A stretch of 64,000 nucleotides of DNA from a virus. The DNA lies in the IMG/VR virus record IMGVR_UViG_3300027759_000002, positions 64,001-128,000 of that record; one strand, written 5' to 3'. The notes beneath the pieces were generated by a model. It had not been told where the DNA came from and ran no database searches. It saw nothing but the letters and a program-made list of their open reading frames with translations. Position numbers and translations under genes: made by a program. Within the stretch, counting starts at the first letter, position 1. The number at the start of each line of letters is the position of its first letter. Positions 14,777 to 62,657 of the stretch are shown piece after piece.

Positions 14777-15832
14777 ATGTCAACTCAAGTCCCACCGTCA
14801 AGATTAGATTCAACCAAAGACTTTTCATCTTTGGTTCCTTCTGCGTTCGCTCGTGCTAATGCTGCGTTCGCACAAGCAAATAATTCTACTGACACTTGGG
14901 TAAGAGGTCAGGCTAATAACGCATACAATACAGCTAATGCTGCATTTCTGCAAGCGAACAATTCTACCGATTCATGGGTAAGAACACAAGCTAATAATTC
15001 TTTTAATAAAGCAAACTCAGCCGCAGAGTTTGCTAATGCATCCTTTTTGGTTGCCAACTCGGCATATGCTTGGGGCAACCACGCTACAGTTGGTTATGCA
15101 ACAACAACTTATGTTGGTACAGCTGTTGCCAATCTAGTAAATTCAGCACCAAGCACATTAGATACATTAAATGAATTGGCAACCGCATTAGGTAATGATG
15201 CCAATTTTAGTGCCACGATTACTAACATGGTTGGCACAGCAAACTCTTTTGCTAATGGTGCTTTCACACAAGCAAACTCAGCAGCATCATTTGCTAACGG
15301 TGCATTTGGTGTTGCTAATACATCAGCTAGTTTTGCCAATGGTGCTTTCCTACAAGCTAATGCTGTATTCAGCCAATCAAATACGTATGTTTGGCCAACA
15401 GCCAACTCAGCCGCAAGTTTTGCTAATAGTGCCTTTGCTCGTGCAAATGCGGCTTATGCTCAAGCCAATACGGGTTCTACCGATACATGGGTTAGAACTC
15501 AGGCTAACAATGCGTACACACAGGCCAATGCGGCTCTCATTCAAGCAAACTCATCACAATTATCAGCAAACGTAGATTCATTTATCGGTAATGGTTCAAA
15601 CACAACATTCTTATTAACTGTAACACCAGCAGATAAGAAATTTACCATGTTAGTTGTTGATGGTGTTGCACAACCAAAGAGTGCTTACACAATATCTGGT
15701 ACAACACTTGCATTATCTTCAGCGGCACCTAACAATGCCATTGTAGAAATAACAACATTTGGTGGTAATGCATCCGCACCAACTCAAACATTACCTGACA
15801 TTTTAAGTCCCTTCTTATTTTTAGGGATATAA
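14777..15832 (+). CDS. Tail fibre stalk protein
   Basis: APSTLDTLNELATALGNDANF tail-fibre motif, ANxAF repeats, GNGSNTTF...VDGVAQP Ig-like domain, ends PFLFLGI. Confidence 0.75.
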   Translation: MSTQVPPSRLDSTKDFSSLVPSAFARANAAFAQANNSTDTWVRGQANNAYNTANAAFLQANNSTDSWVRTQANNSFNKANSAAEFANASFLVANSAYAWGNHATVGYATTTYVGTAVANLVNSAPSTLDTLNELATALGNDANFSATITNMVGTANSFANGAFTQANSAASFANGAFGVANTSASFANGAFLQANAVFSQSNTYVWPTANSAASFANSAFARANAAYAQANTGSTDTWVRTQANNAYTQANAALIQANSSQLSANVDSFIGNGSNTTFLLTVTPADKKFTMLVVDGVAQPKSAYTISGTTLALSSAAPNNAIVEITTFGGNASAPTQTLPDILSPFLFLGI

Positions 15833-32213: not shown

Positions 32214-33959
32214 ATGGCAAACAACACAAACAAATTCTCACTGTTCGGTTTTACAATTTCTCGCCAAAAGGATGAGGAAGATTCTACTGCACAACAATCA
32301 TTTGCGCCACCAACGCAAGATGATGGAGCATTAACTATTACATCTGCCGCTTACTACGGCACTTATGTTGACCTTGACGGTACCGCAAAGAATGAGGTAG
32401 AACTAATCTCTCGTTACCGTGAAATGGCTATGCAACCTGAAATTGAATCTGCGATAGATGATATAGTTAATGAGGCTATTGTTCAAGATGATGATGGTAA
32501 AATAACACAAATTATTTTAGATGATTTAAAAGTTGCCGACAAAATTAAAAAAGCCATTAAAGAAGAATTCAATACCGTTTTGCGTATGTTGAGTTATCAG
32601 AACATGGCACAAGATATCTTCCGCCGTTACTATGTTGATGGTAGAATGTACTATCACATCATTATTGACCGTGAGAAACCACAAGAAGGTATTAAAGAAC
32701 TTCGTTACATCGACCCACGTAGATTACGTAAGGTTCGTGAGATGAAAAAACAAAAAGATGAAAGAACTGGTGCAGATGTTATGCAACCAGTGAATGAATA
32801 CTACATATACAACGACAAGGTTGTTAGCGGTAGTGCATCCAATTTTGGTCCTGTTGGTGTTCGCATTACAACAGACTCTATTATTTCGGTGGTATCGGGT
32901 CTTATGGACTCCCGCCGTGCGGTTGTTCTGAGTTATCTACATAAAGCAATTAAGCCTCTAAATCAATTACGTATGATAGAGGATGCAACGGTCATTTACC
33001 GTATTTCGAGAGCTCCAGAACGCCGTATCTTTTACATTGACGTTGGCAATTTACCAAAATTAAAGGCCGAACAATACATGCGTGATATTATGGTCAAGTA
33101 TAAAAATAAACTTGTCTATGATGCCAATACAGGTGAAGTACGTGATGACCGCAAGTTTATGTCCATGATGGAAGACTTCTGGTTACCACGTAGAGAAGGC
33201 GGCAAAGGCACAGAGATTACCACACTACCAGGTGGACAGAACCTAGGTGAGCTGGAAGACGTTAAATACTTTCAGAAGAAACTATATGGTGCCTTGTGTG
33301 TTCCAATCTCCAGGTTAGAACCTAACCAAGGATTCTCACTTGGTCGTTCATCAGAGATTACTAGAGATGAATTGAAATTCTCTAAATTTGTGGATAGATT
33401 AAGAAGTAAATTTTCCGAAGTATTCAATCAAGCCTTACGTGTACAGTGTGTACTAAAAGGCATTTGTACAGATGAAGAATGGGAATTGTTTAAAGAAGAT
33501 ATTCATTATGACTTCATTAAAGATAATAATTTCTCCGAATTAAAAGAAGCGGAATTAATGTCACAAAGATTAACGTTGTTACAATCGGTTGATCCATATA
33601 CTGGTCGTTATTTCTCACAAAAATGGATTCAACAAAATGTGTTGCGTCTAACAGATGATGAGATTGCAGACATGGATAAAGAAATTGAAACAGAAAAAGA
33701 AATGGGTCTTGGATTGCCTGTTGGTGTAACAAATGATGTTGCACAACAACAGATGTTAGGACAAGTTCAAACCGACCAAATGGTACAACAGGCACAATTG
33801 ATGCCTGATCCTGCACCAGCTGGTGGTTCCAGTTCTGGTGGTGGTAGTTCATCATCAAGTAGTAAATCAAAAAGTTCCAGTGGTTCGAAATCAGTTAAAG
33901 GTGACCTCAGCTTAGAAGAAGTTGAAACAACATTTACCAGATTGAAACGCATTTTATAA
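32214..33959 (+). CDS. gp20: Portal protein gp20
   Basis: YRISRAPERRIFYIDVGNLPK.KAEQY, EDFWLPRREGGKGTEITTLPGGQNLGE. Confidence 0.97.
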   Translation: MANNTNKFSLFGFTISRQKDEEDSTAQQSFAPPTQDDGALTITSAAYYGTYVDLDGTAKNEVELISRYREMAMQPEIESAIDDIVNEAIVQDDDGKITQIILDDLKVADKIKKAIKEEFNTVLRMLSYQNMAQDIFRRYYVDGRMYYHIIIDREKPQEGIKELRYIDPRRLRKVREMKKQKDERTGADVMQPVNEYYIYNDKVVSGSASNFGPVGVRITTDSIISVVSGLMDSRRAVVLSYLHKAIKPLNQLRMIEDATVIYRISRAPERRIFYIDVGNLPKLKAEQYMRDIMVKYKNKLVYDANTGEVRDDRKFMSMMEDFWLPRREGGKGTEITTLPGGQNLGELEDVKYFQKKLYGALCVPISRLEPNQGFSLGRSSEITRDELKFSKFVDRLRSKFSEVFNQALRVQCVLKGICTDEEWELFKEDIHYDFIKDNNFSELKEAELMSQRLTLLQSVDPYTGRYFSQKWIQQNVLRLTDDEIADMDKEIETEKEMGLGLPVGVTNDVAQQQMLGQVQTDQMVQQAQLMPDPAPAGGSSSGGGSSSSSSKSKSSSGSKSVKGDLSLEEVETTFTRLKRIL

Positions 33960-52934: not shown

Positions 52935-53328
52935 AGACCTAGTTGAAGTGACATTGGATGACAAAGATGATTTTTTAAAGGTACGTGAGACACTGACCCG
53001 TATTGGTGTCGCCTCCAAGAAAGACCAAACATTATACCAATCTTGCCACATACTCCACAAACGTGGTCAATACTACGTGGTACATTTCAAAGAACTATTT
53101 GCCTTAGATGGCAAAACAACAGACATTACCGAAAACGACCTATCTCGTAGGAATGCCATTGCAAACCTATTGGAAGATTGGGGCTTGGTAAAGTTAGTCA
53201 ATAAAAAACAAACCGAGGTGCCACCACCTATTTTCTTGTCACAGATTAAAATATTGTCACACAAGGAAAAGAGCGACTGGCAACTTACACCAAAATATAA
53301 TATTGGTAAGAAACCAAATAGTGGTTGA
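52921..53328 (+). CDS. regA: Translational repressor RegA
   Basis: DDFLKVRETLTRIGVAS, LYQSCHILHKRGQYYVVHFKELFALDGK. Confidence 0.96.
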   Translation: MIDIKDLVEVTLDDKDDFLKVRETLTRIGVASKKDQTLYQSCHILHKRGQYYVVHFKELFALDGKTTDITENDLSRRNAIANLLEDWGLVKLVNKKQTEVPPPIFLSQIKILSHKEKSDWQLTPKYNIGKKPNSG

Positions 53329-53353
53329 CAACTGATATAAATATTGTTATAAT
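53325..53353 (+). promoter_or_regulatory. Overlapping sigma70 promoter and T4 late promoter
   Basis: TTGACA(53325)-17-TATAAT(53348); TATAAATA at 53336 inside the spacer. Confidence 0.75.
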
Positions 53354-53553
53354 AGTCCCATCGGGATGGGAAAAGTCAAAGGTGGAACCTGGTCCTACCG
53401 AGACTTAATACTCCAGGAAAAAGGTGCTCCACCTACCTTAGGAGCGTTAGTAAAACGGGCAGACGTAATTGCCGCTGGATAACGTAACCAGTACCTTAAG
53501 CGATACGCCTTCGGGGTATCAATTTTTAATCTCGCTTTCAGGAGAAACTTATG
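53354..53553 (+). promoter_or_regulatory. Structured 5' leader of hsp20 ending in a ROSE-like RNA thermometer
   Basis: Multiple hairpins; last hairpin UCUC(G)CU-UUC-AGGAGA pairs the SD with a bulged G (U-C-G-C-U motif). Confidence 0.6.
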
Positions 53554-53994
53554 ACTAATCTTAAAGATTATTTCGGTGTCGATTTCGGCAAAATTCAACC
53601 ATTCACCGTGGGATTTGATGACACAATGTCAATCATGCGTGAAGCTGCAGCGGCTGCATCTAAAGCCGTATCTTATCCTCCATACAACATCAAACAGGTA
53701 ACTGCAAACAAGTACGTCATTGAAATGGCTGTTGCTGGTTTCGCAAAGTCTGATATTGAGATGACTTTGGAAGGAAACAAACTTGTAATTAAAGCTGCAT
53801 CTAAAGACGCAGAGGAAGAAGAATATTTGTACAAAGGCATTGCCAACCGTGCATTTGAACGTACCTTCACTCTCGCAGACAAAGTTGAAATCAAAGATGC
53901 AGAGTTGATGAATGGTATGTTGAAGATTTGGCTAGAAAACATGGTCAAAGCACAAGATGCTATTAAGAAAATTTCAATCAAGGCCAAAGAATGA
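53551..53994 (+). CDS. hsp20: Small heat shock protein (IbpA-like Hsp20)
   Basis: YPPYNI, IEMAVAGF, YLYKGIANRAFERTFTL, AELMNGMLKI. Confidence 0.95.
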   Translation: MTNLKDYFGVDFGKIQPFTVGFDDTMSIMREAAAAASKAVSYPPYNIKQVTANKYVIEMAVAGFAKSDIEMTLEGNKLVIKAASKDAEEEEYLYKGIANRAFERTFTLADKVEIKDAELMNGMLKIWLENMVKAQDAIKKISIKAKE

Positions 53995-54074
53995 AAAAAT
54001 TTCTACAAAGTATACTTGAAGCCATACAGGCCATCAAAGAACACAGGTCAGACCATACCTTAAAAGGTAGATAA
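53991..54074 (+). CDS. Possible 27-aa peptide coupled to hsp20
   Basis: ATGA overlap with the hsp20 stop; MKKFLQSILEAIQAIKEHRSDHTLKGR. Confidence 0.3.
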   Translation: MKKFLQSILEAIQAIKEHRSDHTLKGR

Positions 54075-54078
54075 TCAT

Positions 54079-54115
54079 AAAGGGTCTTGACAGACCCTTT
54101 TTTTTGTGTTATAAT
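54079..54115 (+). terminator. Terminator with an embedded sigma70 promoter
   Basis: AAAGGGTC-TTGACA-GACCCTTTTTTTT; loop TTGACA is 17 nt from TATAAT at 54110. Confidence 0.75.
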
Positions 54116-54124
54116 ATAGACATT

Positions 54125-54307
54125 ATGAAAACTGAAAAACAATACATCAAAAAAGTTCGTGTTAAAACCACGTTGGAGAATTACTACGTTTGTTCACCAG
54201 AGACTAAAGAGATTGATGGTGTTCAATTTGTTTATGTAATTAAGAACATTGGTATTAGGGAAACACCTAAATTAATGCGAAAAGAATCATTAGAATATAT
54301 CAGATAA
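54125..54307 (+). CDS. Hypothetical protein
   Basis: Likely start ATG 54125 just downstream of the promoter. Confidence 0.5.
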   Translation: MKTEKQYIKKVRVKTTLENYYVCSPETKEIDGVQFVYVIKNIGIRETPKLMRKESLEYIR

Positions 54308-54382
54308 GGGCTGATAGCTTAATGGTAAAGCAGTGAACTCATAATTCATTGAGTCTAGGTTCAATTCCTAGTCAGCCCACCA
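54308..54382 (+). tRNA. tRNA with CAT anticodon (Met or lysidine-Ile2)
   Basis: GGGCTGA/TCAGCCC acceptor, loop CTCATAA, encoded CCA. Confidence 0.9.
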
Positions 54383-54395
54383 ATTTTAAAAAAAT

Positions 54396-54911
54396 ATGAA
54401 AACAAAATTTCGTAATGCATATATGAAAGTGGCCGAGACATTTGCACAATTGTCCTCGGCTCGCAGACTTCATGTTGGTGCTATTGTAGTCAAAGATGAT
54501 AGAATCATTTCAATTGGTTACAATGGTATGCCTTCAGGTTGGGATAATGATTGTGAAGATAAAGAATACATGAGTGTTGATGCTGGCGGTTGGTTGGATT
54601 TGAATGAGATTGAAGAACGCTGGCCAAACAAAGAACAGATGCTTCCAAAGGAAGACAATCGTTGGAGAAGATATGCACTCAAAACTAAACCAGAGGTTTT
54701 ACATGCTGAAACTAATGCGATTGCAAAACTTGCTAAGTCTACCGAATCTGGTATGGGTGCTACTATGTTTGTTACCCACGCTCCATGTTTGGACTGTGCC
54801 AAACTTATCTACCAAAGTGGTATTAGCAGTGTTCTATATCGGAACTCTTATCGGAGTGATGATGGTATCGAATTCCTACAAAAAGCATCAGTCTGGGTAG
54901 AAAAAATCTAA
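54396..54911 (+). CDS. cd: dCMP deaminase
   Basis: VGAIVVKDDRIISIGYNGMPSG, LHAETNAI, THAPCLDCAK. Confidence 0.93.
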   Translation: MKTKFRNAYMKVAETFAQLSSARRLHVGAIVVKDDRIISIGYNGMPSGWDNDCEDKEYMSVDAGGWLDLNEIEERWPNKEQMLPKEDNRWRRYALKTKPEVLHAETNAIAKLAKSTESGMGATMFVTHAPCLDCAKLIYQSGISSVLYRNSYRSDDGIEFLQKASVWVEKI

Positions 54912-54955
54912 TTCTCCTAAATAACTTGGGGTAATTGTGCCCTTAGGAGACCAGG

Positions 54956-55462
54956 ATGATTATTCGTGTGGTTAACTGTCCAGACAAAGATTTTAAGCCC
55001 TTTGTTGAAAGAGCTGCCCAATTCTTCGCTAAAGAATTAATACCTAATACACGAATAAGAAATAATTGTATAACAGAAATTAAATTTTGTACCAAAATAA
55101 CTGAATATGGTTTTGCTAGTATTGAAGATTATAATACAAGAAAACTACCTAGAGAATTCCTAATAGAAATAAATCCAAATATCGGATCCAGAAGAATACT
55201 GGAAACCTTGGCGCATGAAATGGTTCATGTGAAACAATATATTGATGGTGAAACGAATGATGAGTTGACCAGATGGCGAGGTAAGAAGGTTGATCCAGAT
55301 AAGATTGATTATTGGATTCAGCCATGGGAGATAGATGCTTACGGCCGTGAACCTGGACTTATTACAAAGTTTGCTGTATCAGAAAATCTATGGGAAATAC
55401 TTGATGATTTTGTTGATCCATCTGGTCCAATAAATTATAACCCGATTGCCTGGAAAAAATAA
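54956..55462 (+). CDS. Zincin-like metallopeptidase
   Basis: TLAHEMVHVKQY (HEXXH), PWEIDAY. Confidence 0.75.
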   Translation: MIIRVVNCPDKDFKPFVERAAQFFAKELIPNTRIRNNCITEIKFCTKITEYGFASIEDYNTRKLPREFLIEINPNIGSRRILETLAHEMVHVKQYIDGETNDELTRWRGKKVDPDKIDYWIQPWEIDAYGREPGLITKFAVSENLWEILDDFVDPSGPINYNPIAWKK

Positions 55463-55465
55463 AAT

Positions 55466-55999
55466 ATGTCACATCCAACTCAACAAGAGTTTGTAAAAAA
55501 GTTATCATCGGATTTTCCACAAAACTTCAATAACATAAAGATGTTGGAAGTTGGTAGTTTAAATATCAACGGTACCATGAAGATACATTTTAATGAATGT
55601 GAGTATGTTGGTGTTGACGTTGATGCAGGAAAAGATGTTGACTTGGTTTGTGAAGGCCAGCTTGTCGACCATGCAGATGGCACATACGACACCACAGGTT
55701 CTTGTAATTGTTTCGAACACAATCCACATTGGATAGAAACATTTCAAAACATGTATCGTATGACCAAAAAAGATGGATTAGTTTTTATCGTAGTACCAAC
55801 AACAGGTTATCCTGAACATGGTACATCTAATAAAGCACCAAATGATAGTCCTTTAACCATTGCAAAAGGTTGGGAATATTACAGTAATCTTACAGAAGAA
55901 GATTTTTGTAAAAACTTTGATATGGATAGTATGTTTCATACTTACAAGTTTGAAACAAATAATACTCCCGAATTATTTTTTTACGGATTTAAAAAATAA
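55466..55999 (+). CDS. Class I SAM-dependent methyltransferase
   Basis: MLEVGSLNING, YVGVDV..GKDVD, CFEHNPHW, MYRMTKKDG. Confidence 0.8.
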   Translation: MSHPTQQEFVKKLSSDFPQNFNNIKMLEVGSLNINGTMKIHFNECEYVGVDVDAGKDVDLVCEGQLVDHADGTYDTTGSCNCFEHNPHWIETFQNMYRMTKKDGLVFIVVPTTGYPEHGTSNKAPNDSPLTIAKGWEYYSNLTEEDFCKNFDMDSMFHTYKFETNNTPELFFYGFKK

Positions 56000-56012
56000 T
56001 TTTAAAAACCGC

Positions 56013-56041
56013 TTGCCAAGACATAAAAGTTCCTATATAAT
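56013..56041 (+). promoter_or_regulatory. Sigma70-type promoter of the leader ORF
   Basis: TTGCCA-17-TATAAT; predicted +1 coincides with the ATG at 56048. Confidence 0.75.
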
Positions 56042-56047
56042 AACACT

Positions 56048-56158
56048 ATGAAAAATTTTAAACATAAACCCTTTACGTTACAGTCCGAGTATCGCACAAT
56101 TAATTGTGGTGATAGCTCATGGGCGCCGACTGGGTTTTGTGTAAAGAGAGAGAACTAA
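56048..56158 (+). CDS. Putative leaderless attenuator leader peptide (36 aa, all 20 amino acids)
   Basis: MKNFKHKPFTLQSEYRTINCGDSSWAPTGFCVKREN*, translated by hand. Confidence 0.6.
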   Translation: MKNFKHKPFTLQSEYRTINCGDSSWAPTGFCVKREN

Positions 56159-56190
56159 TACATAAGTTCTAAAAAAGACTTCAAACACAA

Positions 56191-56221
56191 GACCCTAGAC
56201 CTAAAAAATCTAGGGTTTTTT
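56191..56221 (+). terminator. Intrinsic terminator (attenuator 3:4 hairpin)
   Basis: GACCCTAGA-loop-TCTAGGGTT followed by T run. Confidence 0.8.
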
Positions 56222-56225
56222 GTTT

Positions 56226-56296
56226 GTTGTTTCAATACAACACAGTGGTTGCCAGGTCATCGAATCTGGTATACAATACACACTGTTCTTTAAAAA
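56226..56296 (+). promoter_or_regulatory. tRNA-array promoter 1 with upstream palindrome and boxA-like site
   Basis: GTTGT-N6-ACAAC, TTGCCA-17-TACAAT, TGTTCTTTAAAAA at 56284. Confidence 0.7.
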
Positions 56297-56311
56297 TTTG
56301 TCGTAGTTTAT

Positions 56312-56385
56312 TGGGGTATAGCATAGTGGTAGTGCTGCGGACTTTGAATCCGTAGGTCCTTGTTCGATTCAAGGTACCCCAGCCA
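56312..56385 (+). tRNA. tRNA-Gln(TTG)
   Basis: Cloverleaf, loop CTTTGAA, CCA. Confidence 0.92.
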
Positions 56386-56455
56386 TATAAAAACACATTA
56401 GAGATAAGCAGGAACTGGTTCGAAACGGGTCGCCTCGTTTAGTGTGTTTCTATAT
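56385..56455 (+). ncRNA. Structured spacer element copy 1
   Basis: ATATAAAAACAC...GTGTTTCTATAT closing stem. Confidence 0.5.
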
Positions 56456-56547
56456 GGAAGATGATGCAGCGGGGTTGGTCCTGCGACTGGCCTTGAAAAC
56501 CAGGTTCTCAGAAATGGGATGGGGTTCGACTCCTCCGTCTTCCGCCA
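56456..56547 (+). tRNA. tRNA-Ser(TGA) with 8/4 acceptor/T-stem fold
   Basis: GGAAGATG/CGTCTTCC 8 bp, 4-bp T stem, long variable arm, G73. Confidence 0.85.
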
Positions 56548-56552
56548 AACAT

Positions 56553-56640
56553 AGAAGGTTGCCCGAGCGGTTAAGGGAGCAGTTTGCTAAACTGTCGTTG
56601 CGAAAGCGGCGCATCGGTTCGAATCCGATACCTTCTGCCA
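56553..56640 (+). tRNA. tRNA-Ser(GCT)
   Basis: Loop TTGCTAA, long variable arm, GCCA. Confidence 0.93.
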
Positions 56641-56646
56641 AAACAT

Positions 56647-56722
56647 GTAGGTGTGACCCGAAAGGCTAGGGAGCAGATTGCAAATCTGTTACATGCAGGT
56701 TCGATTCCTGTCACCTACTCCA
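56647..56722 (+). tRNA. tRNA-Cys(GCA)
   Basis: Loop TTGCAAA, U73 discriminator. Confidence 0.92.
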
Positions 56723-56727
56723 AACAT

Positions 56728-56820
56728 GTTGTAGGAATACAACAGTCTGGTTGACAATGATTCATGGTTGTGTTATACTTCATCTATGAATTGAGAAATC
56801 AATCAAACGTTCTTTAAAAA
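56728..56820 (+). promoter_or_regulatory. tRNA-array promoter 2 with upstream palindrome and boxA-like site
   Basis: GTTGT-N6-ACAAC, TTGACA-17-TATACT, CGTTCTTTAAAAA at 56808. Confidence 0.75.
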
Positions 56821-56835
56821 TTTGTTGTAGTTAAT

Positions 56836-56910
56836 GCTCCGTTCGTCTATCGGTTAGGACGCTGCCCTTTCAAGGCGGAAAGACCAGTTCGATTCTGGTA
56901 CGGAGTACCA
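56836..56910 (+). tRNA. tRNA-Glu(TTC)
   Basis: Loop CTTTCAA, cloverleaf, CCA. Confidence 0.93.
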
Positions 56911-57032
56911 TTTGTTTTGCTGACGTAAGCGCTTGAGTAAACGTCAACTCTAACTAACTATGTGTATAAACGGTAATGCTGCAGCTAAATCCGTTGAGCA
57001 TAGCAAATAGTGCGTCAGCAAAACAAATGGTA
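56906..57032 (+). ncRNA. Long hairpin RNA closed by a perfect 20-bp stem
   Basis: TACCATTTGTTTTGCTGACG / CGTCAGCAAAACAAATGGTA. Confidence 0.55.
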
Positions 57033-57037
57033 GTTAT

Positions 57038-57112
57038 GGGGGTATAACTTAACGGCTAAAGTAGTAGGCTTTTAACCTATTAATCAGAGTTCGATTCTCT
57101 GTACCCCTACCA
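57038..57112 (+). tRNA. tRNA-Lys(TTT)
   Basis: Loop CTTTTAA, cloverleaf, CCA. Confidence 0.92.
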
Positions 57113-57181
57113 TATAAAAACACACTTCCGACAGCAGGCGGAACTCAGGATAAGTCCATTCGGGTGAGTGTGTTTCTATAT
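57112..57181 (+). ncRNA. Structured spacer element copy 2
   Basis: Same closing stem as 56385-56455. Confidence 0.5.
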
Positions 57182-57274
57182 GGAGGCATTGTAGATATGG
57201 CGTGTTCTGCAGCGGACTGTAAATCCGTTCCCCCGTGGTAAACAATGTTGGTTCGACTCCAACTGCCTCCACCA
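57182..57274 (+). tRNA. tRNA-Tyr(GTA)
   Basis: Loop CTGTAAA, long variable region, ACCA. Confidence 0.9.
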
Positions 57275-57466
57275 AATCCCGTTACTACTTCCGTTAAAGT
57301 AGCGTTTGATTAGCGATAGAGATCCGGTGGCAGAAAACCGTTAGCGAGAGAAATCTCAGGCTCTGATAGGCAGTTCCCTCTGCACACAGACATTAGAATA
57401 AAAGGGATGGACAGAGTAACTTCTCAATTAAGGGCTTGTGTGGAAACAAGTAGCTTATCCTAATTT
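57275..57466 (+). ncRNA. Unidentified structured RNA (~190 nt)
   Basis: No ORF; hairpins CTACT/AGTAG, CGGT/ACCG, GAGA-GAAA-TCTC, CTTGT/ACAAG. Confidence 0.45.
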
Positions 57467-57541
57467 GGTCTTAAAGTGTTCATGGACGCACATCAGCCTG
57501 TCACGCTGAAAGAAGGGGATCGTTACCCCTTAAGACCGCCA
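57467..57541 (+). tRNA. tRNA-Asp(GTC), atypical A8/U14 and A54/U58
   Basis: Loop CTGTCAC, T-loop ATCGTTA, GCCA. Confidence 0.85.
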
Positions 57542-57551
57542 AATAATTGTT

Positions 57552-57923
57552 GTGAAGGAAAAGAAAATGAATATAAACGATATGGTTGGAAAAGTATTCA
57601 CATCGGTAACACAAGATGGTTATGAGATGGTATTTGCGAATGAAACTGAAAAATTCAGATTCTTCCATTATCAAGATTGTTGCGAAACAGTTTACATTGA
57701 AAGCATTGTAGGTGAGTTATCGGATTTAGAAGGCGAAACACTTTTGATTGCTGAAGAAGTATCAGGTGAAATACCAGAACCTAAAGAAGATGAATACATT
57801 GAATCTCGCTCATGGACATTTTACAAATTTGCTACACGCAAAGGTTATGTTGATGTTCGTTGGTTGGGAGAATCAAACGGTTACTATTCCGAATCAGTAG
57901 ATTTAGAATACGAGTTAGTATAA
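57552..57923 (+). CDS. Hypothetical acidic protein inside the tRNA array
   Basis: HYQDCCETV.IESIVGELSDL, SWTFYKFATRKGYVDVRWLGESNGYYSESV; start may be a few codons downstream. Confidence 0.75.
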   Translation: MKEKKMNINDMVGKVFTSVTQDGYEMVFANETEKFRFFHYQDCCETVYIESIVGELSDLEGETLLIAEEVSGEIPEPKEDEYIESRSWTFYKFATRKGYVDVRWLGESNGYYSESVDLEYELV

Positions 57924-57930
57924 AGAATAT

Positions 57931-58005
57931 TCCAGAGTAGCACAGCGGTAGTGCAGTTGACTGTTAATCAATTGGTCGTAGGTTCGATCCCTGCCTCTGG
58001 AGCCA
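57931..58005 (+). tRNA. tRNA-Asn(GTT)
   Basis: Loop CTGTTAA, GCCA. Confidence 0.93.
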
Positions 58006-58219
58006 ATACGTTCCGCTTGGTTAGCGGATACTGTGACCCGCAGGATAAGAAGTGAGGTGACTCTCAAGGGTGGTAGTCTTTTTACCGAAAGGCCGCTGGC
58101 AATGCGTTAACGATCCTGGTCGGGAAGCGGGTGGAGGTTATGGGTGTATTCCCCTTGAAAAAGGACATGTTTACAACTATGATATAATTACCGCCGCAGG
58201 ATGCAGAGCACTTAATTTC
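58006..58219 (+). ncRNA. Unidentified structured RNA (~210 nt)
   Basis: GC-richer than flanks, no ORF, several hairpins (TCCGC/GCGGA, GTCTTT/AAAGGC, CGATC/GGTCG). Confidence 0.45.
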
Positions 58220-58293
58220 GCCCTATTAGTATAATGGCATTACACCTGTTTTGTAATCAGGTTACGGCAGTTCGATTCTGTCATGGGGCACCA
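58220..58293 (+). tRNA. tRNA-Thr(TGT)
   Basis: Loop TTTGTAA, ACCA. Confidence 0.9.
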
Positions 58294-58299
58294 GTTTTT

Positions 58300-58375
58300 C
58301 TCTCTGAAGCGTTATCAGGTTGCGTACACGGTTTGGGGCCGTGTGGTCAAGGTTCGAATCCTTGCAGGGAGACCA
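58300..58375 (+). tRNA. tRNA-Pro(TGG), atypical A8/U14
   Basis: C1:G72, loop TTTGGGG, ACCA. Confidence 0.87.
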
Positions 58376-58383
58376 GTTTTTTT

Positions 58384-58458
58384 GGGGGCAGCAGTGGGCT
58401 GCGGCGTTCCCTTGCAAGGATCGTGACTAGAAGGATTCGATTTCCTCGGCCTCCACCA
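58384..58458 (+). tRNA. Atypical tRNA-Ala(TGC)
   Basis: G3:U70, loop CTTGCAA, A73; tiny D-loop, enlarged variable region. Confidence 0.7.
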
Positions 58459-58462
58459 ATTA

Positions 58463-58537
58463 GGTTCAGTAGCATAGTGGCAGTGCAGCATCTTCATACG
58501 GTGCGTTGTGTGAGTTCGATTCTCACCTGAACCACCA
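58463..58537 (+). tRNA. tRNA with CAT anticodon (elongator Met or Ile2)
   Basis: GGTTCAG/CTGAACC, loop TTCATAC. Confidence 0.88.
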
Positions 58538-58543
58538 AATTAT

Positions 58544-58618
58544 GGGCGATTAGTAAAATGAATATTACACAAGGCTACGAACCTTGAAGTGGGAGTTTGA
58601 TTCTCTCATCGCCCTCCA
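58544..58618 (+). tRNA. tRNA-Arg(ACG)
   Basis: Loop CTACGAA, T-loop TTTGATT, CCA. Confidence 0.88.
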
Positions 58619-58622
58619 AAAT

Positions 58623-58697
58623 GCCGAGGTAGCTCAGTGGTAGAGCAGCGTCTTGATAAGGCGTTGGCCAAGAGTTCAATTCTCTTTCTCGGTACCA
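58623..58697 (+). tRNA. tRNA-Ile(GAT)
   Basis: Loop TTGATAA, ACCA. Confidence 0.92.
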
Positions 58698-58700
58698 AAT

Positions 58701-58774
58701 TTCTCGCTGGTGTAATGGCAGCATAGCGGTCTCCAAAACCGTTGGTTGGGGTTCGAGTCCCTAGCGGGATGCCA
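58701..58774 (+). tRNA. tRNA-Trp(CCA)
   Basis: Loop CTCCAAA, G73, 1:72 mismatch. Confidence 0.88.
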
Positions 58775-58795
58775 ATTTTAAAAAAGGTGATTAAT

Positions 58796-59281
58796 ATGAA
58801 AAATTTCAATATAGAAGAAGTCAGACAATACCTTGCAAATCAAGGTCCTGATACCAAGGTTTATCTTGGTGCCGACTCTGAAAGAATCAGGGTAAATGGT
58901 GTTTGGTATGCTGACTATGCTCTAGCAGTTGTAGTTCATATTGATGGCCGACATGGTTGTAAGATTTTCGGATATGTTCACCGTGAATTGGATTACGACC
59001 ATAAGAAAAGTAAACCTGCTATGAGGTTGATGACTGAAGTTTATAAAGTTTCAGAATTGTTCCAATCATTAGCAGAAGTGTTGGAAGATTATCATGTTGA
59101 AGTTCATCTTGATTTAAATAAAGATGATATTCATGGTAGTTCATGTGTTGTTCAGCAAGCGATTGGTTATATCAAAGGTACATGTAATATGACACCAATG
59201 GTTAAACCAGATGCACCTGCTGCAAGTTTTTGTGCTGATAGATTGAAAAGAATCTTGGCAGACCAAGAAGCACTTCAATAA
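58796..59281 (+). CDS. RNase H-like protein (DUF458-type)
   Basis: Likely start ATG 58796; KVYLGADSE, MRLMTEV, VEVHLDLN, AASFCAD. Confidence 0.7.
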   Translation: MKNFNIEEVRQYLANQGPDTKVYLGADSERIRVNGVWYADYALAVVVHIDGRHGCKIFGYVHRELDYDHKKSKPAMRLMTEVYKVSELFQSLAEVLEDYHVEVHLDLNKDDIHGSSCVVQQAIGYIKGTCNMTPMVKPDAPAASFCADRLKRILADQEALQ

Positions 59282-59284
59282 TAT

Positions 59285-59359
59285 GGAGAAATTAGTTTAG
59301 TGGTAAAACCACGGGTTGTGATTCCGTTATCACCAGTTCGATCCTGGTATTTCTCCCCA
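59285..59359 (+). tRNA. tRNA-His(GTG)
   Basis: Encoded G-1:C73, loop TTGTGAT. Confidence 0.92.
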
Positions 59360-59364
59360 AATAT

Positions 59365-59439
59365 GCCCCGTTAGCTCAGTGGTAGAGCAGTGCTTTTACA
59401 CGGCGAAGGTCGGCAGTTCGAAACTGTCACGGGGTACCA
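59365..59439 (+). tRNA. tRNA-Val(TAC)
   Basis: Loop TTTACAC, weak anticodon stem, ACCA. Confidence 0.87.
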
Positions 59440-59443
59440 ACAT

Positions 59444-59519
59444 GCTGCTTTAGCTGATGTGGTCATAGCGGTGGTCTGAAGAACCATTGAAAGAGGTTCG
59501 ATTCCTCTAGGCAGCACCA
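59444..59519 (+). tRNA. tRNA-Phe(GAA) with G37
   Basis: Loop CTGAAGA. Confidence 0.9.
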
Positions 59520-59524
59520 AATAT

Positions 59525-59601
59525 GCCCAAGTGACGGAATAGGTATACGTACTTGATTCAAAATCAAGGTTATGTGGGCTCGAATCCCACCTTGGGTACC
59601 A
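59525..59601 (+). tRNA. tRNA-Leu(CAA), short variable loop
   Basis: Loop TTCAAAA, variable region GTTAT, T-loop CTCGAAT. Confidence 0.85.
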
Positions 59602-59602
59602 T

Positions 59603-59676
59603 GCTCTTATAGGTAAATGGCATACCACATCCATGGTAAGGATGTATCCTAAGTTCGATTCTTAGTAGGAGCACCA
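59603..59676 (+). tRNA. tRNA-Thr(GGT)
   Basis: Loop ATGGTAA; 1-nt spacer from the preceding tRNA. Confidence 0.9.
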
Positions 59677-59873
59677 ACTTGTTTTAATGTTGTTAAGATA
59701 AATTCTTTTTCTTGTGTGATATATAATTCATCATCTTCAAAAGTTTTTATCTTAGTATCATATGATGGAACAAATTCAGAATCAACACAGTAGTAACCAT
59801 TAGGTTCATATGTTTGTTGTGCATACAATCCGTAAAACATTTCTACTGTAGGTCTTTTTGAAGTTGGTATCAT
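59649..59873 (-). CDS. Possible small antisense protein in the tRNA array
   Basis: MIPTSKRPTVEMFYG...; fills the 210-nt gap, stop lies within tRNA-Thr. Confidence 0.35.
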   Translation of the reverse strand: MIPTSKRPTVEMFYGLYAQQTYEPNGYYCVDSEFVPSYDTKIKTFEDDELYITQEKEFILTTLKQVGAPTKNRT

Positions 59874-59886
59874 ATGAGTATTTATT

Positions 59887-59963
59887 GCCCCGGTGACGGA
59901 ATTGGTATACGTGTTGGTCTTAGAAGCCAAATTTTGAGAGTTCGAGTCTCTCCTGGGGCACCA
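59887..59963 (+). tRNA. tRNA-Leu(TAG), short variable loop
   Basis: Loop CTTAGAA, variable region ATTTT. Confidence 0.87.
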
Positions 59964-59968
59964 AATTT

Positions 59969-60043
59969 CTGGCGTTAGTATAATGGATAATACAGTAGGC
60001 TTCTACCCTTCTAATGGGAGTTCGATTCTCTCACGCCGGACCA
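59969..60043 (+). tRNA. tRNA-Arg(TCT)
   Basis: Loop CTTCTAC, ACCA. Confidence 0.9.
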
Positions 60044-60060
60044 TTTTTTAGGAGTTTATT

Positions 60061-60639
60061 ATGCCAGCAGTATTTTTAGTAAGTGACACACACTTTGGTC
60101 ACGCTGGTGTGTGTAGATTTCTTCGTGATGACGGAACAAAACTTCGGCCATGGGATAATCCCGATGAAATGGATGAAGAAATGATTAAGCGTTGGAACGA
60201 AACAGTCAGACCAAACGATAAAGTTTACCATCTTGGTGATGTTGTTATTAATCGTAAAGCAATGAATACTCTATATAGACTTAACGGTGATAAGGTTCTT
60301 ATTCGTGGTAACCATGATATCTTCCGTGATGAGGAATACAGACAACACTTTCGTGAACTACGTGCTTATCATGTAATGAATGGAATGATCCTGTCACATA
60401 TTCCAATTCATACGGAAAGTCTTGGTCGTTTCGGTGTAAACATCCATGGCCATTTACATTCCAATCGTGTTCAGATTCGTGGGTTCAATGGTAAACCAAT
60501 GGGTATTGATAACAGATACCATTGTGTTTGTGTTGAACAAACAGATTTTAGACCGATTCTTTTTGAAGATGTTATCAAACGAATTAAAGAAGAAGGTGGT
60601 GAGGTCGGTTTCAAAAGTGGAAACGACCGTGCTATGTGA
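60061..60639 (+). CDS. Calcineurin-like metallophosphoesterase
   Basis: SDTHFGH, YHLGDV, RGNHD, LSHIP, NIHGHLH. Confidence 0.9.
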   Translation: MPAVFLVSDTHFGHAGVCRFLRDDGTKLRPWDNPDEMDEEMIKRWNETVRPNDKVYHLGDVVINRKAMNTLYRLNGDKVLIRGNHDIFRDEEYRQHFRELRAYHVMNGMILSHIPIHTESLGRFGVNIHGHLHSNRVQIRGFNGKPMGIDNRYHCVCVEQTDFRPILFEDVIKRIKEEGGEVGFKSGNDRAM

Positions 60640-60640
60640 T

Positions 60641-60723
60641 GCGAGTATGGGGGAATTGGTAGACCCATCAGACTTAAAATCTGCCGCCTCGGCGTACCGG
60701 TTCGACTCCGGTTACTCGTACCA
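60641..60723 (+). tRNA. tRNA-Leu(TAA)
   Basis: Loop CTTAAAA, long variable arm, ACCA. Confidence 0.92.
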
Positions 60724-60733
60724 AAAATAATGC

Positions 60734-60762
60734 TTGACTTCTTAATAAGAAGCCTATATAAT
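60734..60762 (+). promoter_or_regulatory. Sigma70-type promoter for the Gly tRNA cluster
   Basis: TTGACT-17-TATAAT; palindromic CTTCTT-AAT-AAGAAG spacer. Confidence 0.7.
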
Positions 60763-60773
60763 ACACACATGAT

Positions 60774-60848
60774 GCGGGTATGGTGCTAGTGGTAACACAA
60801 GACCTTGCCAAGGTTTAGTTGTGAGTTCGATTCTCACTACCCGCTCCA
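60774..60848 (+). tRNA. tRNA-Gly(GCC)
   Basis: Loop TTGCCAA, U73. Confidence 0.93.
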
Positions 60849-60870
60849 AGTTAACTACAACAGATTTTAT

Positions 60871-60944
60871 GCGGGATTAGTTTAGTGGTAAAACAGTAGA
60901 TTTCCAATCTCCGGTTGAGAGTTCGATTCTCTCATCCCGCTCCA
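60871..60944 (+). tRNA. tRNA-Gly(TCC)
   Basis: Loop TTTCCAA, U73. Confidence 0.92.
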
Positions 60945-60950
60945 TTTAAT

Positions 60951-61017
60951 GCGGTTTGTAATAGTACGATACAAGGTACCCCCTTGTGTTAACTGAGCAA
61001 AGCAGTAGACCGCTCCA
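60951..61017 (+). ncRNA. 67-nt miniature tRNA-Gly-like RNA
   Basis: GCGGTTT/AGACCGC-T-CCA acceptor, ACAAG/CTTGT stem with loop GTACCCC, non-canonical D and T arms. Confidence 0.6.
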
Positions 61018-61030
61018 TTTTGAGGACACT

Positions 61031-61276
61031 ATGAATATTAAACCCTTGCATGATAAAGTATTGATTGAACGTATTGAGAATGTCAAAGAGACCGCTTCAG
61101 GCATCATCCTAAAACATTCCGAAGATCCAGATAAAGCAAGAGTACTTGCAGTTGGTCCGGATGTTACAGAAGTCCAGGTCGGTGATGTGGTTCAACCAGA
61201 CTGGGGTAAGGCCGCAGCAGTGCAAGATTATTTCGTGGTGAAGATTGAAGACATAGCTTACATCTACGGAGAGTAA
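61031..61276 (+). CDS. groES: GroES-like co-chaperonin
   Basis: Likely start ATG 61031; IKPLHDKVLIE...ETASGIIL...VLAVGP...VQVGDVV. Confidence 0.88.
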   Translation: MNIKPLHDKVLIERIENVKETASGIILKHSEDPDKARVLAVGPDVTEVQVGDVVQPDWGKAAAVQDYFVVKIEDIAYIYGE

Positions 61277-61278
61277 AC

Positions 61279-61506
61279 ATGTCTGATGGTGGTAAAGGTT
61301 CTAGTCCAAGGCCGTTTAGTGTTTCACAGAAAACATTTGGTAATAACTACGACAATATTTTTAGAAAAAAATCACCAAAAGAAATACAAGAAGACAAATA
61401 CGAACAAGAAGAATTTGATAGAATTTTAGAAGAAAATCGTATGCGCCAAAAGGCTTTAGATGCCATGGTGGCAGAAAATCAAAGATTAGGTTTATACGAC
61501 AACTAA
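61279..61506 (+). CDS. Hypothetical protein
   Basis: MSDGGKGSSPRPFSV; GGAG RBS. Confidence 0.6.
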   Translation: MSDGGKGSSPRPFSVSQKTFGNNYDNIFRKKSPKEIQEDKYEQEEFDRILEENRMRQKALDAMVAENQRLGLYDN

Positions 61507-61509
61507 TAT

Positions 61510-61582
61510 AGCGGGTTGGTGAAATGGTATCACAGTGGGCTCATAATCCTCAGTTCCGGTTCGACTCCGTGACCCGCAACCA
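61510..61582 (+). tRNA. Initiator-like tRNA-fMet(CAT)
   Basis: 1:72 mismatch (A/A), GGG at the base of the anticodon stem, loop CTCATAA. Confidence 0.82.
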
Positions 61583-61596
61583 TTAATCTTTATACA

Positions 61597-61884
61597 TCAC
61601 GGCGATTCAATTTTATCTTTGCAAGAACGTGAATTGTTTACTGAAGTTGTATGTATCAATGTAGAACCATTTCGTTTTACATTTGAACATTTATATTCAC
61701 AGACTTGTAAATCTTTCGGTCCACTTTTTTCAGTAAAACTTCTTGTCAATTTACAATAATCATTATTGTTAGTCGCTTTGGTGTATATGACAGCATCCGG
61801 CATCAAGTTTATATTGATGGTTGGATGAGTGACCATCAGTGTTACACTTGTGGTCAACAACGTAAATAAGAGTTTTTTATTCAT
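61597..61884 (-). CDS. Small exported or membrane-anchored Cys-containing protein
   Basis: Signal-peptide-like N-terminus, four Cys; overlaps the stop of 61881-62657. Confidence 0.55.
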   Translation of the reverse strand: MNKKLLFTLLTTSVTLMVTHPTININLMPDAVIYTKATNNNDYCKLTRSFTEKSGPKDLQVCEYKCSNVKRNGSTLIHTTSVNNSRSCKDKIESP

Positions 61885-62657
61885 CTTCCTACGTAAACTT
61901 TAGGCATTGATTCTTCCCTTCTTTTTTCTTCTGATTTAGGAAATAACCCATCACCATATTGTGGATATTTCTGTTGTCTATCATATGCTACCCACATAAA
62001 CACACCAGCCATAACAAAAATTATAATCACAATAGCAACGCCTGTAGCAAATTCATCTCTGAGTTTTCTCATTCGTGCTAAACGGCGTTTATCTAATATC
62101 GCTTGTTGTTGCATTTGTTTGATAAGAAGAACCTTTTGTTCTTTACCCATCTCTTTCATCATTTCTTCGACTTCGGTATATAAAGCACCGAGCTCTGGAG
62201 GACTTTGATAAATCATCAACTCACGTAAATCAACTGACATTTGTTCAAGTTGTTTACGCATGAGTACACGTTGTAAGGCACGTTTACCTAATGATGCATC
62301 TCCGGTATAAACTTGTGTCTTAGCAATTTTTTCTTCTTCTTCAAAAACAGCCATACATTTATAAAAGTTATCATAGTATGTGCCTAGGTGTTCACCAATC
62401 TCTTGGTAGATGTTGGTAGTTTCTCCACCCTTTTTGTTTAGTTCAATTACACGATTTTTTTCCGTAATGAAGGCATTTCTTTGTGCTACACTTGCAGGTT
62501 TTTCTGGTGGATGGAGCTTTTTGAACTGGTCGTCAAGATCCTTGAGGACGTCCTTGACTTCCCCAGCTGCACCTTTAATATCTTTGTATAGTTTACATCC
62601 GGCTTTGACTGCCGAAACCGCACCATTTGCGAGGGCAAAGAGTGTGAATGGATCCAT
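61881..62657 (-). CDS. Coiled-coil protein with C-terminal transmembrane helix
   Basis: MDPFTLFALANGAVSAVK...; GVAIVIIIFVMAGVFMWVAY. Confidence 0.7.
   Translation of the reverse strand: MDPFTLFALANGAVSAVKAGCKLYKDIKGAAGEVKDVLKDLDDQFKKLHPPEKPASVAQRNAFITEKNRVIELNKKGGETTNIYQEIGEHLGTYYDNFYKCMAVFEEEEKIAKTQVYTGDASLGKRALQRVLMRKQLEQMSVDLRELMIYQSPPELGALYTEVEEMMKEMGKEQKVLLIKQMQQQAILDKRRLARMRKLRDEFATGVAIVIIIFVMAGVFMWVAYDRQQKYPQYGDGLFPKSEEKRREESMPKVYVGR

Follow-up and report, generated by a model that had tools for sequence, protein, structure and literature searches.

A candidate ribosome-dependent attenuator with an amino-acid-complete leader peptide at the head of a phage tRNA array

At the head of the tRNA array of a T4-like phage, we identified a compact unit that consists of a promoter, a short open reading frame (ORF) encoding all 20 amino acids, a segment pair capable of forming an antiterminator helix, and an intrinsic terminator. 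Judging from the comparison of sequences across the phage family that carries it, this unit is best explained, with moderate confidence, as a ribosome-dependent transcription attenuator, such that transcription into the tRNA genes probably rises when translation slows. Beyond this architecture, we infer the coupling of transcription to translation, the regulated read-through, and the kind of shortage that is sensed.

The window analyzed here is a stretch of 64,000 nucleotides that corresponds to bases 64001-128000 of a viral contig of 179,754 bp, with direct terminal repeats and 37% G+C. The portal, terminase, and baseplate genes of this contig are T4-like, and the nearest cultured relatives are cyanomyoviruses, at a portal identity of only 53-56%. 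The coordinates of the unit and its surroundings are collected in Table 1. Much of this layout had been drawn in a first-pass annotation made from the letters of the window, and a large part of it was borne out: the sigma-70-type promoter, the 36-codon ORF with 20 of the 20 amino acids (19 by codon 26) and 29 distinct codons, the switches between synonymous codons for Thr, Ser, Pro, Gly, and Arg, the 11-bp pairing of segments 2 and 3 with one G-U pair (duplex energy -15.6 kcal/mol), the terminator hairpin (-12.1 kcal/mol) with its T-run, and the second promoter just past the terminator are all present. Transcription presumably starts at the A of the ATG of the ORF, which would make the mRNA leaderless. 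The terminated transcript folds far better than shuffled sequences (z -4.7). Two additional elements are kept in most lineages, namely, a palindrome (TGTTGT, 6 nt, ACAACA) between the terminator and P2, at 56225-56242 of the window, and a boxA-like element, TGTTCTTTAAAAATTTG, between P2 and tRNA-Gln (56284-56300); motifs similar to these occur in G004 and L037 (here and below, L with a number denotes a locus and G with a number denotes a genome, G000 being the phage genome that contains the window).

Table 1. Features of the leader unit and its surroundings, in window coordinates
Feature	Coordinates	Strand	Remarks
Promoter P1, sigma-70-type	56013..56041	+	TTGCCA, 17 nt, TATAAT; score 11/12
Leader ORF	56048..56158	+	36 codons and stop; all 20 amino acids
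Hairpin within the ORF, codons 14-24	56087..56118	+	part of the minimum-energy fold
Segment 2, antiterminator 5' strand	56132..56142	+	codons 29-32; pairs with segment 3
Small hairpin with the stop codon (56156-56158) in its loop	56151..56170	+	predicted fold; 3' strand nearly invariant
Segment 3, antiterminator 3' strand	56185..56195	+	last 5 nt are the start of the terminator 5' arm
Intrinsic terminator	56190..56225	+	stem of ~9-10 bp, 9-nt loop, T-run
Second promoter P2	56249..56277	+	TTGCCA, 17 nt, TACAAT; between the terminator and the first tRNA
tRNA-Gln(UUG)	56312..56385	+	first gene of the tRNA array, which extends to 61582

Relatives of the unit were collected along five routes, that is, with the neighboring methyltransferase protein as the query, with a motif from the 3' untranslated stretch, by a profile search of the fetched loci, by inspection of the sequence preceding the first tRNA in more divergent relatives, and with two pattern scans, one for the promoter followed by ATG and the other for a T-run followed by a tRNA start, neither of which puts any constraint on the ORF or the antiterminator. 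With the leader ORFs called by rule, the collection comprises 61 loci, which encode 54 distinct leader peptides with lengths of 23-44 residues; the 36 sequences of the close set make up alignment A1. The family that carries the unit consists of uncultured T4-like lake phages. A tblastn search with the leader peptide against 50,697 cultured-phage records produced no credible match, a blastn search with three family members against cultured phages produced none, and no match to the peptide was detected in Pfam or PHROG at E <= 10; an exact 30-mer from the ORF did not occur in the viral contigs searched, and the leader RNA matches no family in Rfam. The leader variants are mosaics of differently combined N-terminal, core, and C-terminal modules (for example, L063 and L069), which suggests recombination among co-occurring phages.

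Three features of the comparison indicate that the leader ORF is translated. Every one of the 54 distinct variants keeps the reading frame open between a plausible start and a stop that shortly precedes the terminator, and the lengths of indels within the frame are always divisible by three. The ratio of nonsynonymous to synonymous polymorphism (pN/pS) is 0.54 in the ORF frame, compared to 1.22-1.23 in the other two frames. Finally, the architecture of the start codon is conserved: in most lineages, the ATG is located exactly 6 nt past the -10 box, which is the geometry of a leaderless mRNA, and in the other lineages, an insertion of ~25 nt at this place carries a purine-rich, SD-like stretch and a GTG, TTG, or ATG start. 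The conserved motifs of the peptide itself are few (S-W, G-F/Y-C, and E-Y-R-T) and fall where the nucleotide sequence is invariant even at synonymous sites, implying that the constraint is at least partly on the RNA. The C-terminus varies freely, including a frameshift between L033 and L037, with the stop staying in its place relative to segment 2, and both cysteines can be lost. The N-terminus may resemble phage T4 Stp, a resemblance that plays no part in our reading.

The comparison of lineages also identifies the antiterminator and the terminator as mutually exclusive structures, both of which covary, and stem covariation is what the first-pass annotation had proposed to check. An automatic finder recovered the terminator hairpin with the T-run in 18 of the 19 representatives, and in L142, which it missed, the stem and the T-run are visible in the sequence; three pairs of the stem show compensatory changes within A1, and each lineage has its own matching stem, this covariation resting on A1 and the per-lineage folds, with the loops misaligned across divergent lineages in A3. 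In each of the 18 representatives for which the finder recovered a terminator, the last part of the ORF can form a helix with a stretch that shares the first 5-6 nt of the terminator 5' arm. This antiterminator helix (-11.3 to -27.5 kcal/mol) is usually stronger than the terminator (-10.6 to -16.1 kcal/mol), is better than shuffles in 15 of the 18 representatives (p <= 0.007), and, for the leader of this phage, is the strongest among the 23 ORF-terminator pairs of the genome (-18.4, against a mean of -8.1 with a standard deviation of 3.8). Across the 12 lineages that can be aligned, 88.9% of the cells pair and 4 of the 12 pairs show double compensatory changes, compared to 25-58% pairing and 0-1 doubly changed pairs in slid controls. 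The non-alignable lineages L140, L147, L163, and L162 have complementary segment pairs of their own; in L163, GAGG/CCTC replaces GGG/CCC in segment 2, segment 3, and the terminator 3' arm alike. Within A1, segment 2 is invariant, including three synonymous sites, and segment 3 is polymorphic at one base, where G and A can each pair with the opposing U; conservation is higher in the 3' untranslated stretch than in the ORF.

In all lineages but L127, the stop codon is found close to the 3' end of the segment-2 helix, between 12 nt ahead of it and 10 nt past it, so that a terminating ribosome would cover segment 2. In L127 (L127:5931-6046), the stop is displaced, the peptide of 44 residues ending 26 nt past segment 2, and a second short helix further downstream may compensate for this displacement. 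The core of the inner hairpin, comprising 5 pairs, is kept in 36 of the 36 sequences of A1, with one position occupied by G-U, G-C, or A-U, and may be a pause or folding element. The complete set of alternating 1:2, 2:3, and 3:4 pairings that had been ascribed to the unit survives in two of its parts: the 2:3 and 3:4 pairings are conserved and covary, whereas the 1:2 pairing lacks both significance and conservation. Segment 2 can indeed pair with 56062-56071, at -8.9 kcal/mol, but this does not stand out from shuffled sequences (z -1.5), and across the representatives, the pairing of segment 2 with the upstream part of the ORF scores between z -2.2 and +1.4 and varies in position. In the absence of a supported, conserved 1:2 pairing, termination of the untranslated RNA would rest on weaker, lineage-specific structure.

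The consequences of ribosome position were modeled by folding the transcript up to the terminator 3' arm with a 30-nt ribosome footprint masked, an equilibrium treatment of what is, in reality, a kinetic decision. For the window, the model gives the terminator a probability of 0.79-0.83 when the ribosome is absent; the value drops to 0.05-0.5 for most positions of the A site within codons 2-24 and climbs to 0.93-0.96 for positions from codon 26 to the stop. The expected switch is clear in 9 of the 16 representatives and is weak in L026, L162, L163, L075, L033, and L016, among others. The original suggestion that a stall at almost any codon leads to read-through thus appears too broad, given that the model favors the antiterminator only for stalls at about codons 2-24. 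Stalls at codons 26-36 favor termination in the model, which would place the single Val and Ala, and, as a borderline case, Trp, outside the simple sensing window.

The probability that 36 codons include 20 of the 20 amino acids, a calculation that had been called for in the first-pass annotation, is 0.0027 under the base composition of the genome; for the same ORF, it is 0.0011 under the protein composition of the phage itself and 0.013 under perfectly even use. The leader ORF is the shortest all-20 ORF across the 179,754-bp genome. The 29 distinct codons, which had been considered notable, are not unusual (P(>=29) = 0.12). For a single ORF picked post hoc from a scan of great size, such a probability does not settle the matter, which is decided by the comparative data. 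Homologous loci retain the ORF and its amino acid diversity despite deep divergence, with 19-20 kinds of amino acids in 44 of the 54 distinct peptides: all 20 are present in 31 peptides, 19 in 13, 18 in one, 17 in eight, and 14 in one, the least complete members including the 30-aa lineage (17-18 kinds), L119 and L135 (17 kinds each), and L141 (14 kinds in 23 aa). All-20 peptides recur in lineages with a mutual identity of only 8-31%, including the window type, the L140 type, the L162 type, L123 (32 aa), and L147 (43 aa). Rare residues, such as Cys, His, and Tyr, shift position between lineages. The L140 type lacks Cys at the two usual positions and has one near position 12 instead; the His, otherwise at position 6, directly follows the Trp. 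The only Tyr of L123 and of L147 occupies the position of Phe in other lineages.

Even under a deliberately generous null, in which amino acids are used perfectly evenly and the M, S, W, G core is granted as conserved, combining ten lineages by Fisher's method yields p = 5e-6, or p = 0.002 when the poorest member of each lineage is taken, both values being inexact due to the residual homology between lineages. For contrast, an unrelated hydrophobic ORF of 38 residues that follows the same promoter-plus-ATG pattern in L146 and L150 contains 13 kinds. The leader has no single-codon runs, and nearly all 20 amino acids occur one to three times. The modeled sensing window, which comprises the codons preceding segment 2, contains 13-19 kinds of amino acids (in most cases 16-18), and Trp, Val, and Ala, Gly, or His are often found beyond it, in the last codons; the diversity of kinds within this window is modestly raised (Fisher p = 0.018 under even use and 8e-5 under phage-protein composition). 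Whole-ORF completeness, therefore, is a stronger signal than the simple model needs or explains. The amino acid completeness of the leader appears to be selected.

The genes downstream of the unit are tRNA genes wherever the contig is long enough, whereas its upstream neighbors vary by lineage (methyltransferase, tRNA-Met, or other ORFs). ARAGORN and Rfam detect 26-27 tRNAs in this phage, covering 19 amino acids and not the 20 initially counted, with tRNA-Ala not found anywhere in G000 by either tool; tRNA-Ala(TGC) is carried by the relatives G001, G004, L033, and G002. In 40 of the 54 variants, a sigma-70-like promoter followed by tRNA-Gln is located within 85-127 nt of the unit. In 10 others, a tRNA (Ser-UGA, Trp, Gln, or Cys) begins 0-11 nt past the T-run, leaving no room for a promoter, so that transcription of the tRNA must pass through this terminator. 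The reservation that P2 makes the unit a modulator rather than a gate of the array applies, accordingly, to the window and the 40 variants, where read-through can only add to the transcription of the array, and lapses in those where the tRNA abuts the terminator and P2 is absent. The leader amino acid set does not track the array set in reduced arrays: the 30-aa lineage has tRNA-Gly and a leader without Gly, and Gln or Ile match inconsistently. Matching of the leader codons to the anticodons of the phage was uninformative by inspection, the array decoding most codons. One relative, G002, has a tRNA array without a recognizable unit; at G002 (L113) 14880-15175, the first of its 35 tRNAs is preceded by a region of ~270 nt with long inverted repeats and no leader unit.

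Two RNA genes or gene-like elements of this phage family deserve separate mention. Between tRNA-Gln and tRNA-Ser(GCU), at 56456-56543 of the window, there is a tRNA-like element with a long variable arm that is not called by ARAGORN and resembles tRNA-Sec in Rfam at 35 bits, below the gathering score; its anticodon loop, by eye, would read UGA (Ser). Near-identical copies are found in G004, at ~33740-33815, and directly after the terminator in L033, where an uncalled tRNA-like element lies ~5 nt past the T-run. Furthermore, ARAGORN reports a permuted tmRNA-like gene with the tag peptide ANDSQFALAA at G000:C1:18867-19227, outside the window; if a phage carries its own ribosome-rescue RNA, any model based on stall sensing would have to take this into account.

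These observations can be combined in the following scenario. Transcription from P1 would produce a leaderless mRNA, and the 36-codon ORF would be translated while the RNA polymerase moves on. Segment 2, at the end of the ORF, could pair with segment 3, which comprises the 5' flank and the first stem bases of the terminator, and this pairing would block the terminator. A fast ribosome would cover segment 2 as segment 3 emerges, allowing the terminator to form and transcription to stop; if the ribosome is late, segment 2 would remain free, the antiterminator would form, and the polymerase would enter the tRNA genes. With nearly every amino acid present once or twice in the ORF, the time that a ribosome takes to cross it would be set jointly by many tRNA species, which could amount to homeostatic control of the phage tRNA supply. 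More tentatively, with rather less confidence than in the attenuator as such, we propose that the leader has been selected to hold every amino acid, so that the transit time reports on the whole tRNA pool. Under this pan-tRNA homeostat, a shortage of almost any tRNA, caused by the decay of host tRNAs during infection or by anticodon-nuclease defense, would delay the ribosome, favor the antiterminator, and result in increased transcription of the near-complete tRNA set of the phage. A sensor of the whole tRNA pool would be the most economical reason for the completeness of the leader.

Other explanations of the same observations have to be considered. An attenuator of this build might sense the general status of translation (ribosome availability, elongation inhibitors, or host shut-off), with completeness playing no sensing part. 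Such a sensor would fit with the lack of one-codon runs, the source of specificity and sensitivity in classical attenuators, with the finding that completeness is not confined to the modeled sensing window, and with the response of known antibiotic-resistance attenuators to any stall in the leader ORF (PMC4335068). However, it leaves unexplained the 19-20 kinds in 44 of the 54 variants across lineages that are 8-31% identical, the mobile positions of the rare residues, and why the controlled genes encode tRNAs, so that we regard it as unlikely. Slightly further down the scale is the possibility that the ORF is an autonomous small gene, whose peptide of 23-44 residues acts in trans, perhaps on tRNA or translation factors, the helix between the ORF end and the terminator flank serving mRNA stability or translational control. 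The ORF indeed has its own promoter, an efficient-looking terminator, a coding signature (pN/pS 0.54), and a few conserved motifs (S-W, G-F/Y-C, and E-Y-R-T); the second promoter serves the array in most variants, and trans-acting leader peptides are known (peTrpL, PMC7298713). Yet, the motif stretches are invariant at synonymous sites, pointing to constraint that is at least partly on the RNA, the C-terminus is free to vary whereas the stop holds its place with respect to segment 2, the loss of both cysteines is tolerated, the peptide belongs to no Pfam or PHROG family, and in 10 variants, the tRNA genes are reachable only by read-through of this terminator. An autonomous gene is, thus, distinctly unlikely.

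The RNA rather than the peptide could be the product: the terminated transcript of ~175 nt would then be a trans-acting small RNA, possibly with a dual function, and the near-invariant, A-rich single strand at ~56164-56190 would be a seed or an Hfq-type binding module. Although the quality of the fold (z -4.7), the stronger conservation of the 3' untranslated stretch than of the ORF, and the existence of attenuator-derived small RNAs (rnTrpL, PMC6614838) are compatible with such a role, the antiterminator explains the conservation equally well, the stretch differs in divergent lineages, where it covaries with segment 2, and no Rfam family matches; we consider this quite improbable. Last, the ORF might be a chance occurrence between the promoter and the terminator of the upstream methyltransferase gene, with coincidental all-20 content. 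A probability of ~0.003 for one ORF is not rare over many windows, and 29 distinct codons are unremarkable, but the comparative data contradict this explanation, because lineages that have a peptide identity of 8-31% and differ in their upstream neighbors share the frame, the coding signature, the start architecture, the antiterminator covariation, and the completeness. The probability that the ORF is a product of chance appears to be close to negligible.

Large tRNA sets of phages are usually discussed in terms of codon usage or of escape from tRNA-cleaving defenses, and to our knowledge, the control of their expression is largely uncharted. If the attenuator reading is correct, a leader that gates tRNA transcription would mean that phages measure decoding capacity and adjust the tRNA supply, and a leader that samples all amino acids would represent a new design principle for attenuators, a general as opposed to a specific sensor. 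In full-text searches, we found no published account of leader-peptide attenuation before tRNA genes or in phages, nor one of an attenuator leader that samples all amino acids; the claim that pan-tRNA sensing logic has not been described for any attenuator can, as far as we found, be put forward tentatively. The unit is shorter than 200 nt and carries consensus sigma-70 signals, which makes it directly testable in laboratory strains, and translation stress could be monitored with the leader unit as a compact reporter.

Attenuation through leader peptides is a textbook mechanism, and the unit described here shares a short translated leader ORF with trpL, hisL, pheL, thrL, and the multivalent ilvGMEDA leader. 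As in trpL-type attenuators, the 5' arm of the terminator pairs alternatively with a segment at the end of the ORF, and the position of the ribosome would decide which structure forms. Unlike in the attenuators of amino acid operons, the genes downstream are not those for biosynthetic enzymes but phage tRNAs, no conserved 1:2 anti-antiterminator was found, the mRNA would usually be leaderless, and a second promoter often follows the terminator; the main departure is that, in place of a regulatory codon run, 19-20 kinds of amino acids are present in 44 of the 54 leaders. T-box riboswitches likewise make a terminator/antiterminator decision on tRNA status before translation-related genes, but they bind one uncharged tRNA, via a specifier codon and the T-box motif, without translation; the leader here contains a conserved translated ORF and no Rfam T-box match in 53000-62500, where a search at E <= 1 recovered only tRNA-type matches and weak chance hits. 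As in the Trp attenuator of Sinorhizobium, for which the sources outline experimentally shown trans functions of both the RNA, rnTrpL, and the peptide, peTrpL (PMC6614838, PMC7298713), the released RNA and the leader peptide of the phage unit may also act in trans. The mef(E)/mel-type attenuators differ from the phage unit in that drug-bound ribosomes are sensed and efflux or protection genes are controlled, and in that their leader peptides are not enriched for amino acid completeness. Nevertheless, the logic is similar: in the mef(E)/mel leader, as outlined in PMC4335068, a stall of any cause frees the antiterminator, and the sensor proposed here would, in the same manner, report translation trouble and not the level of one metabolite.
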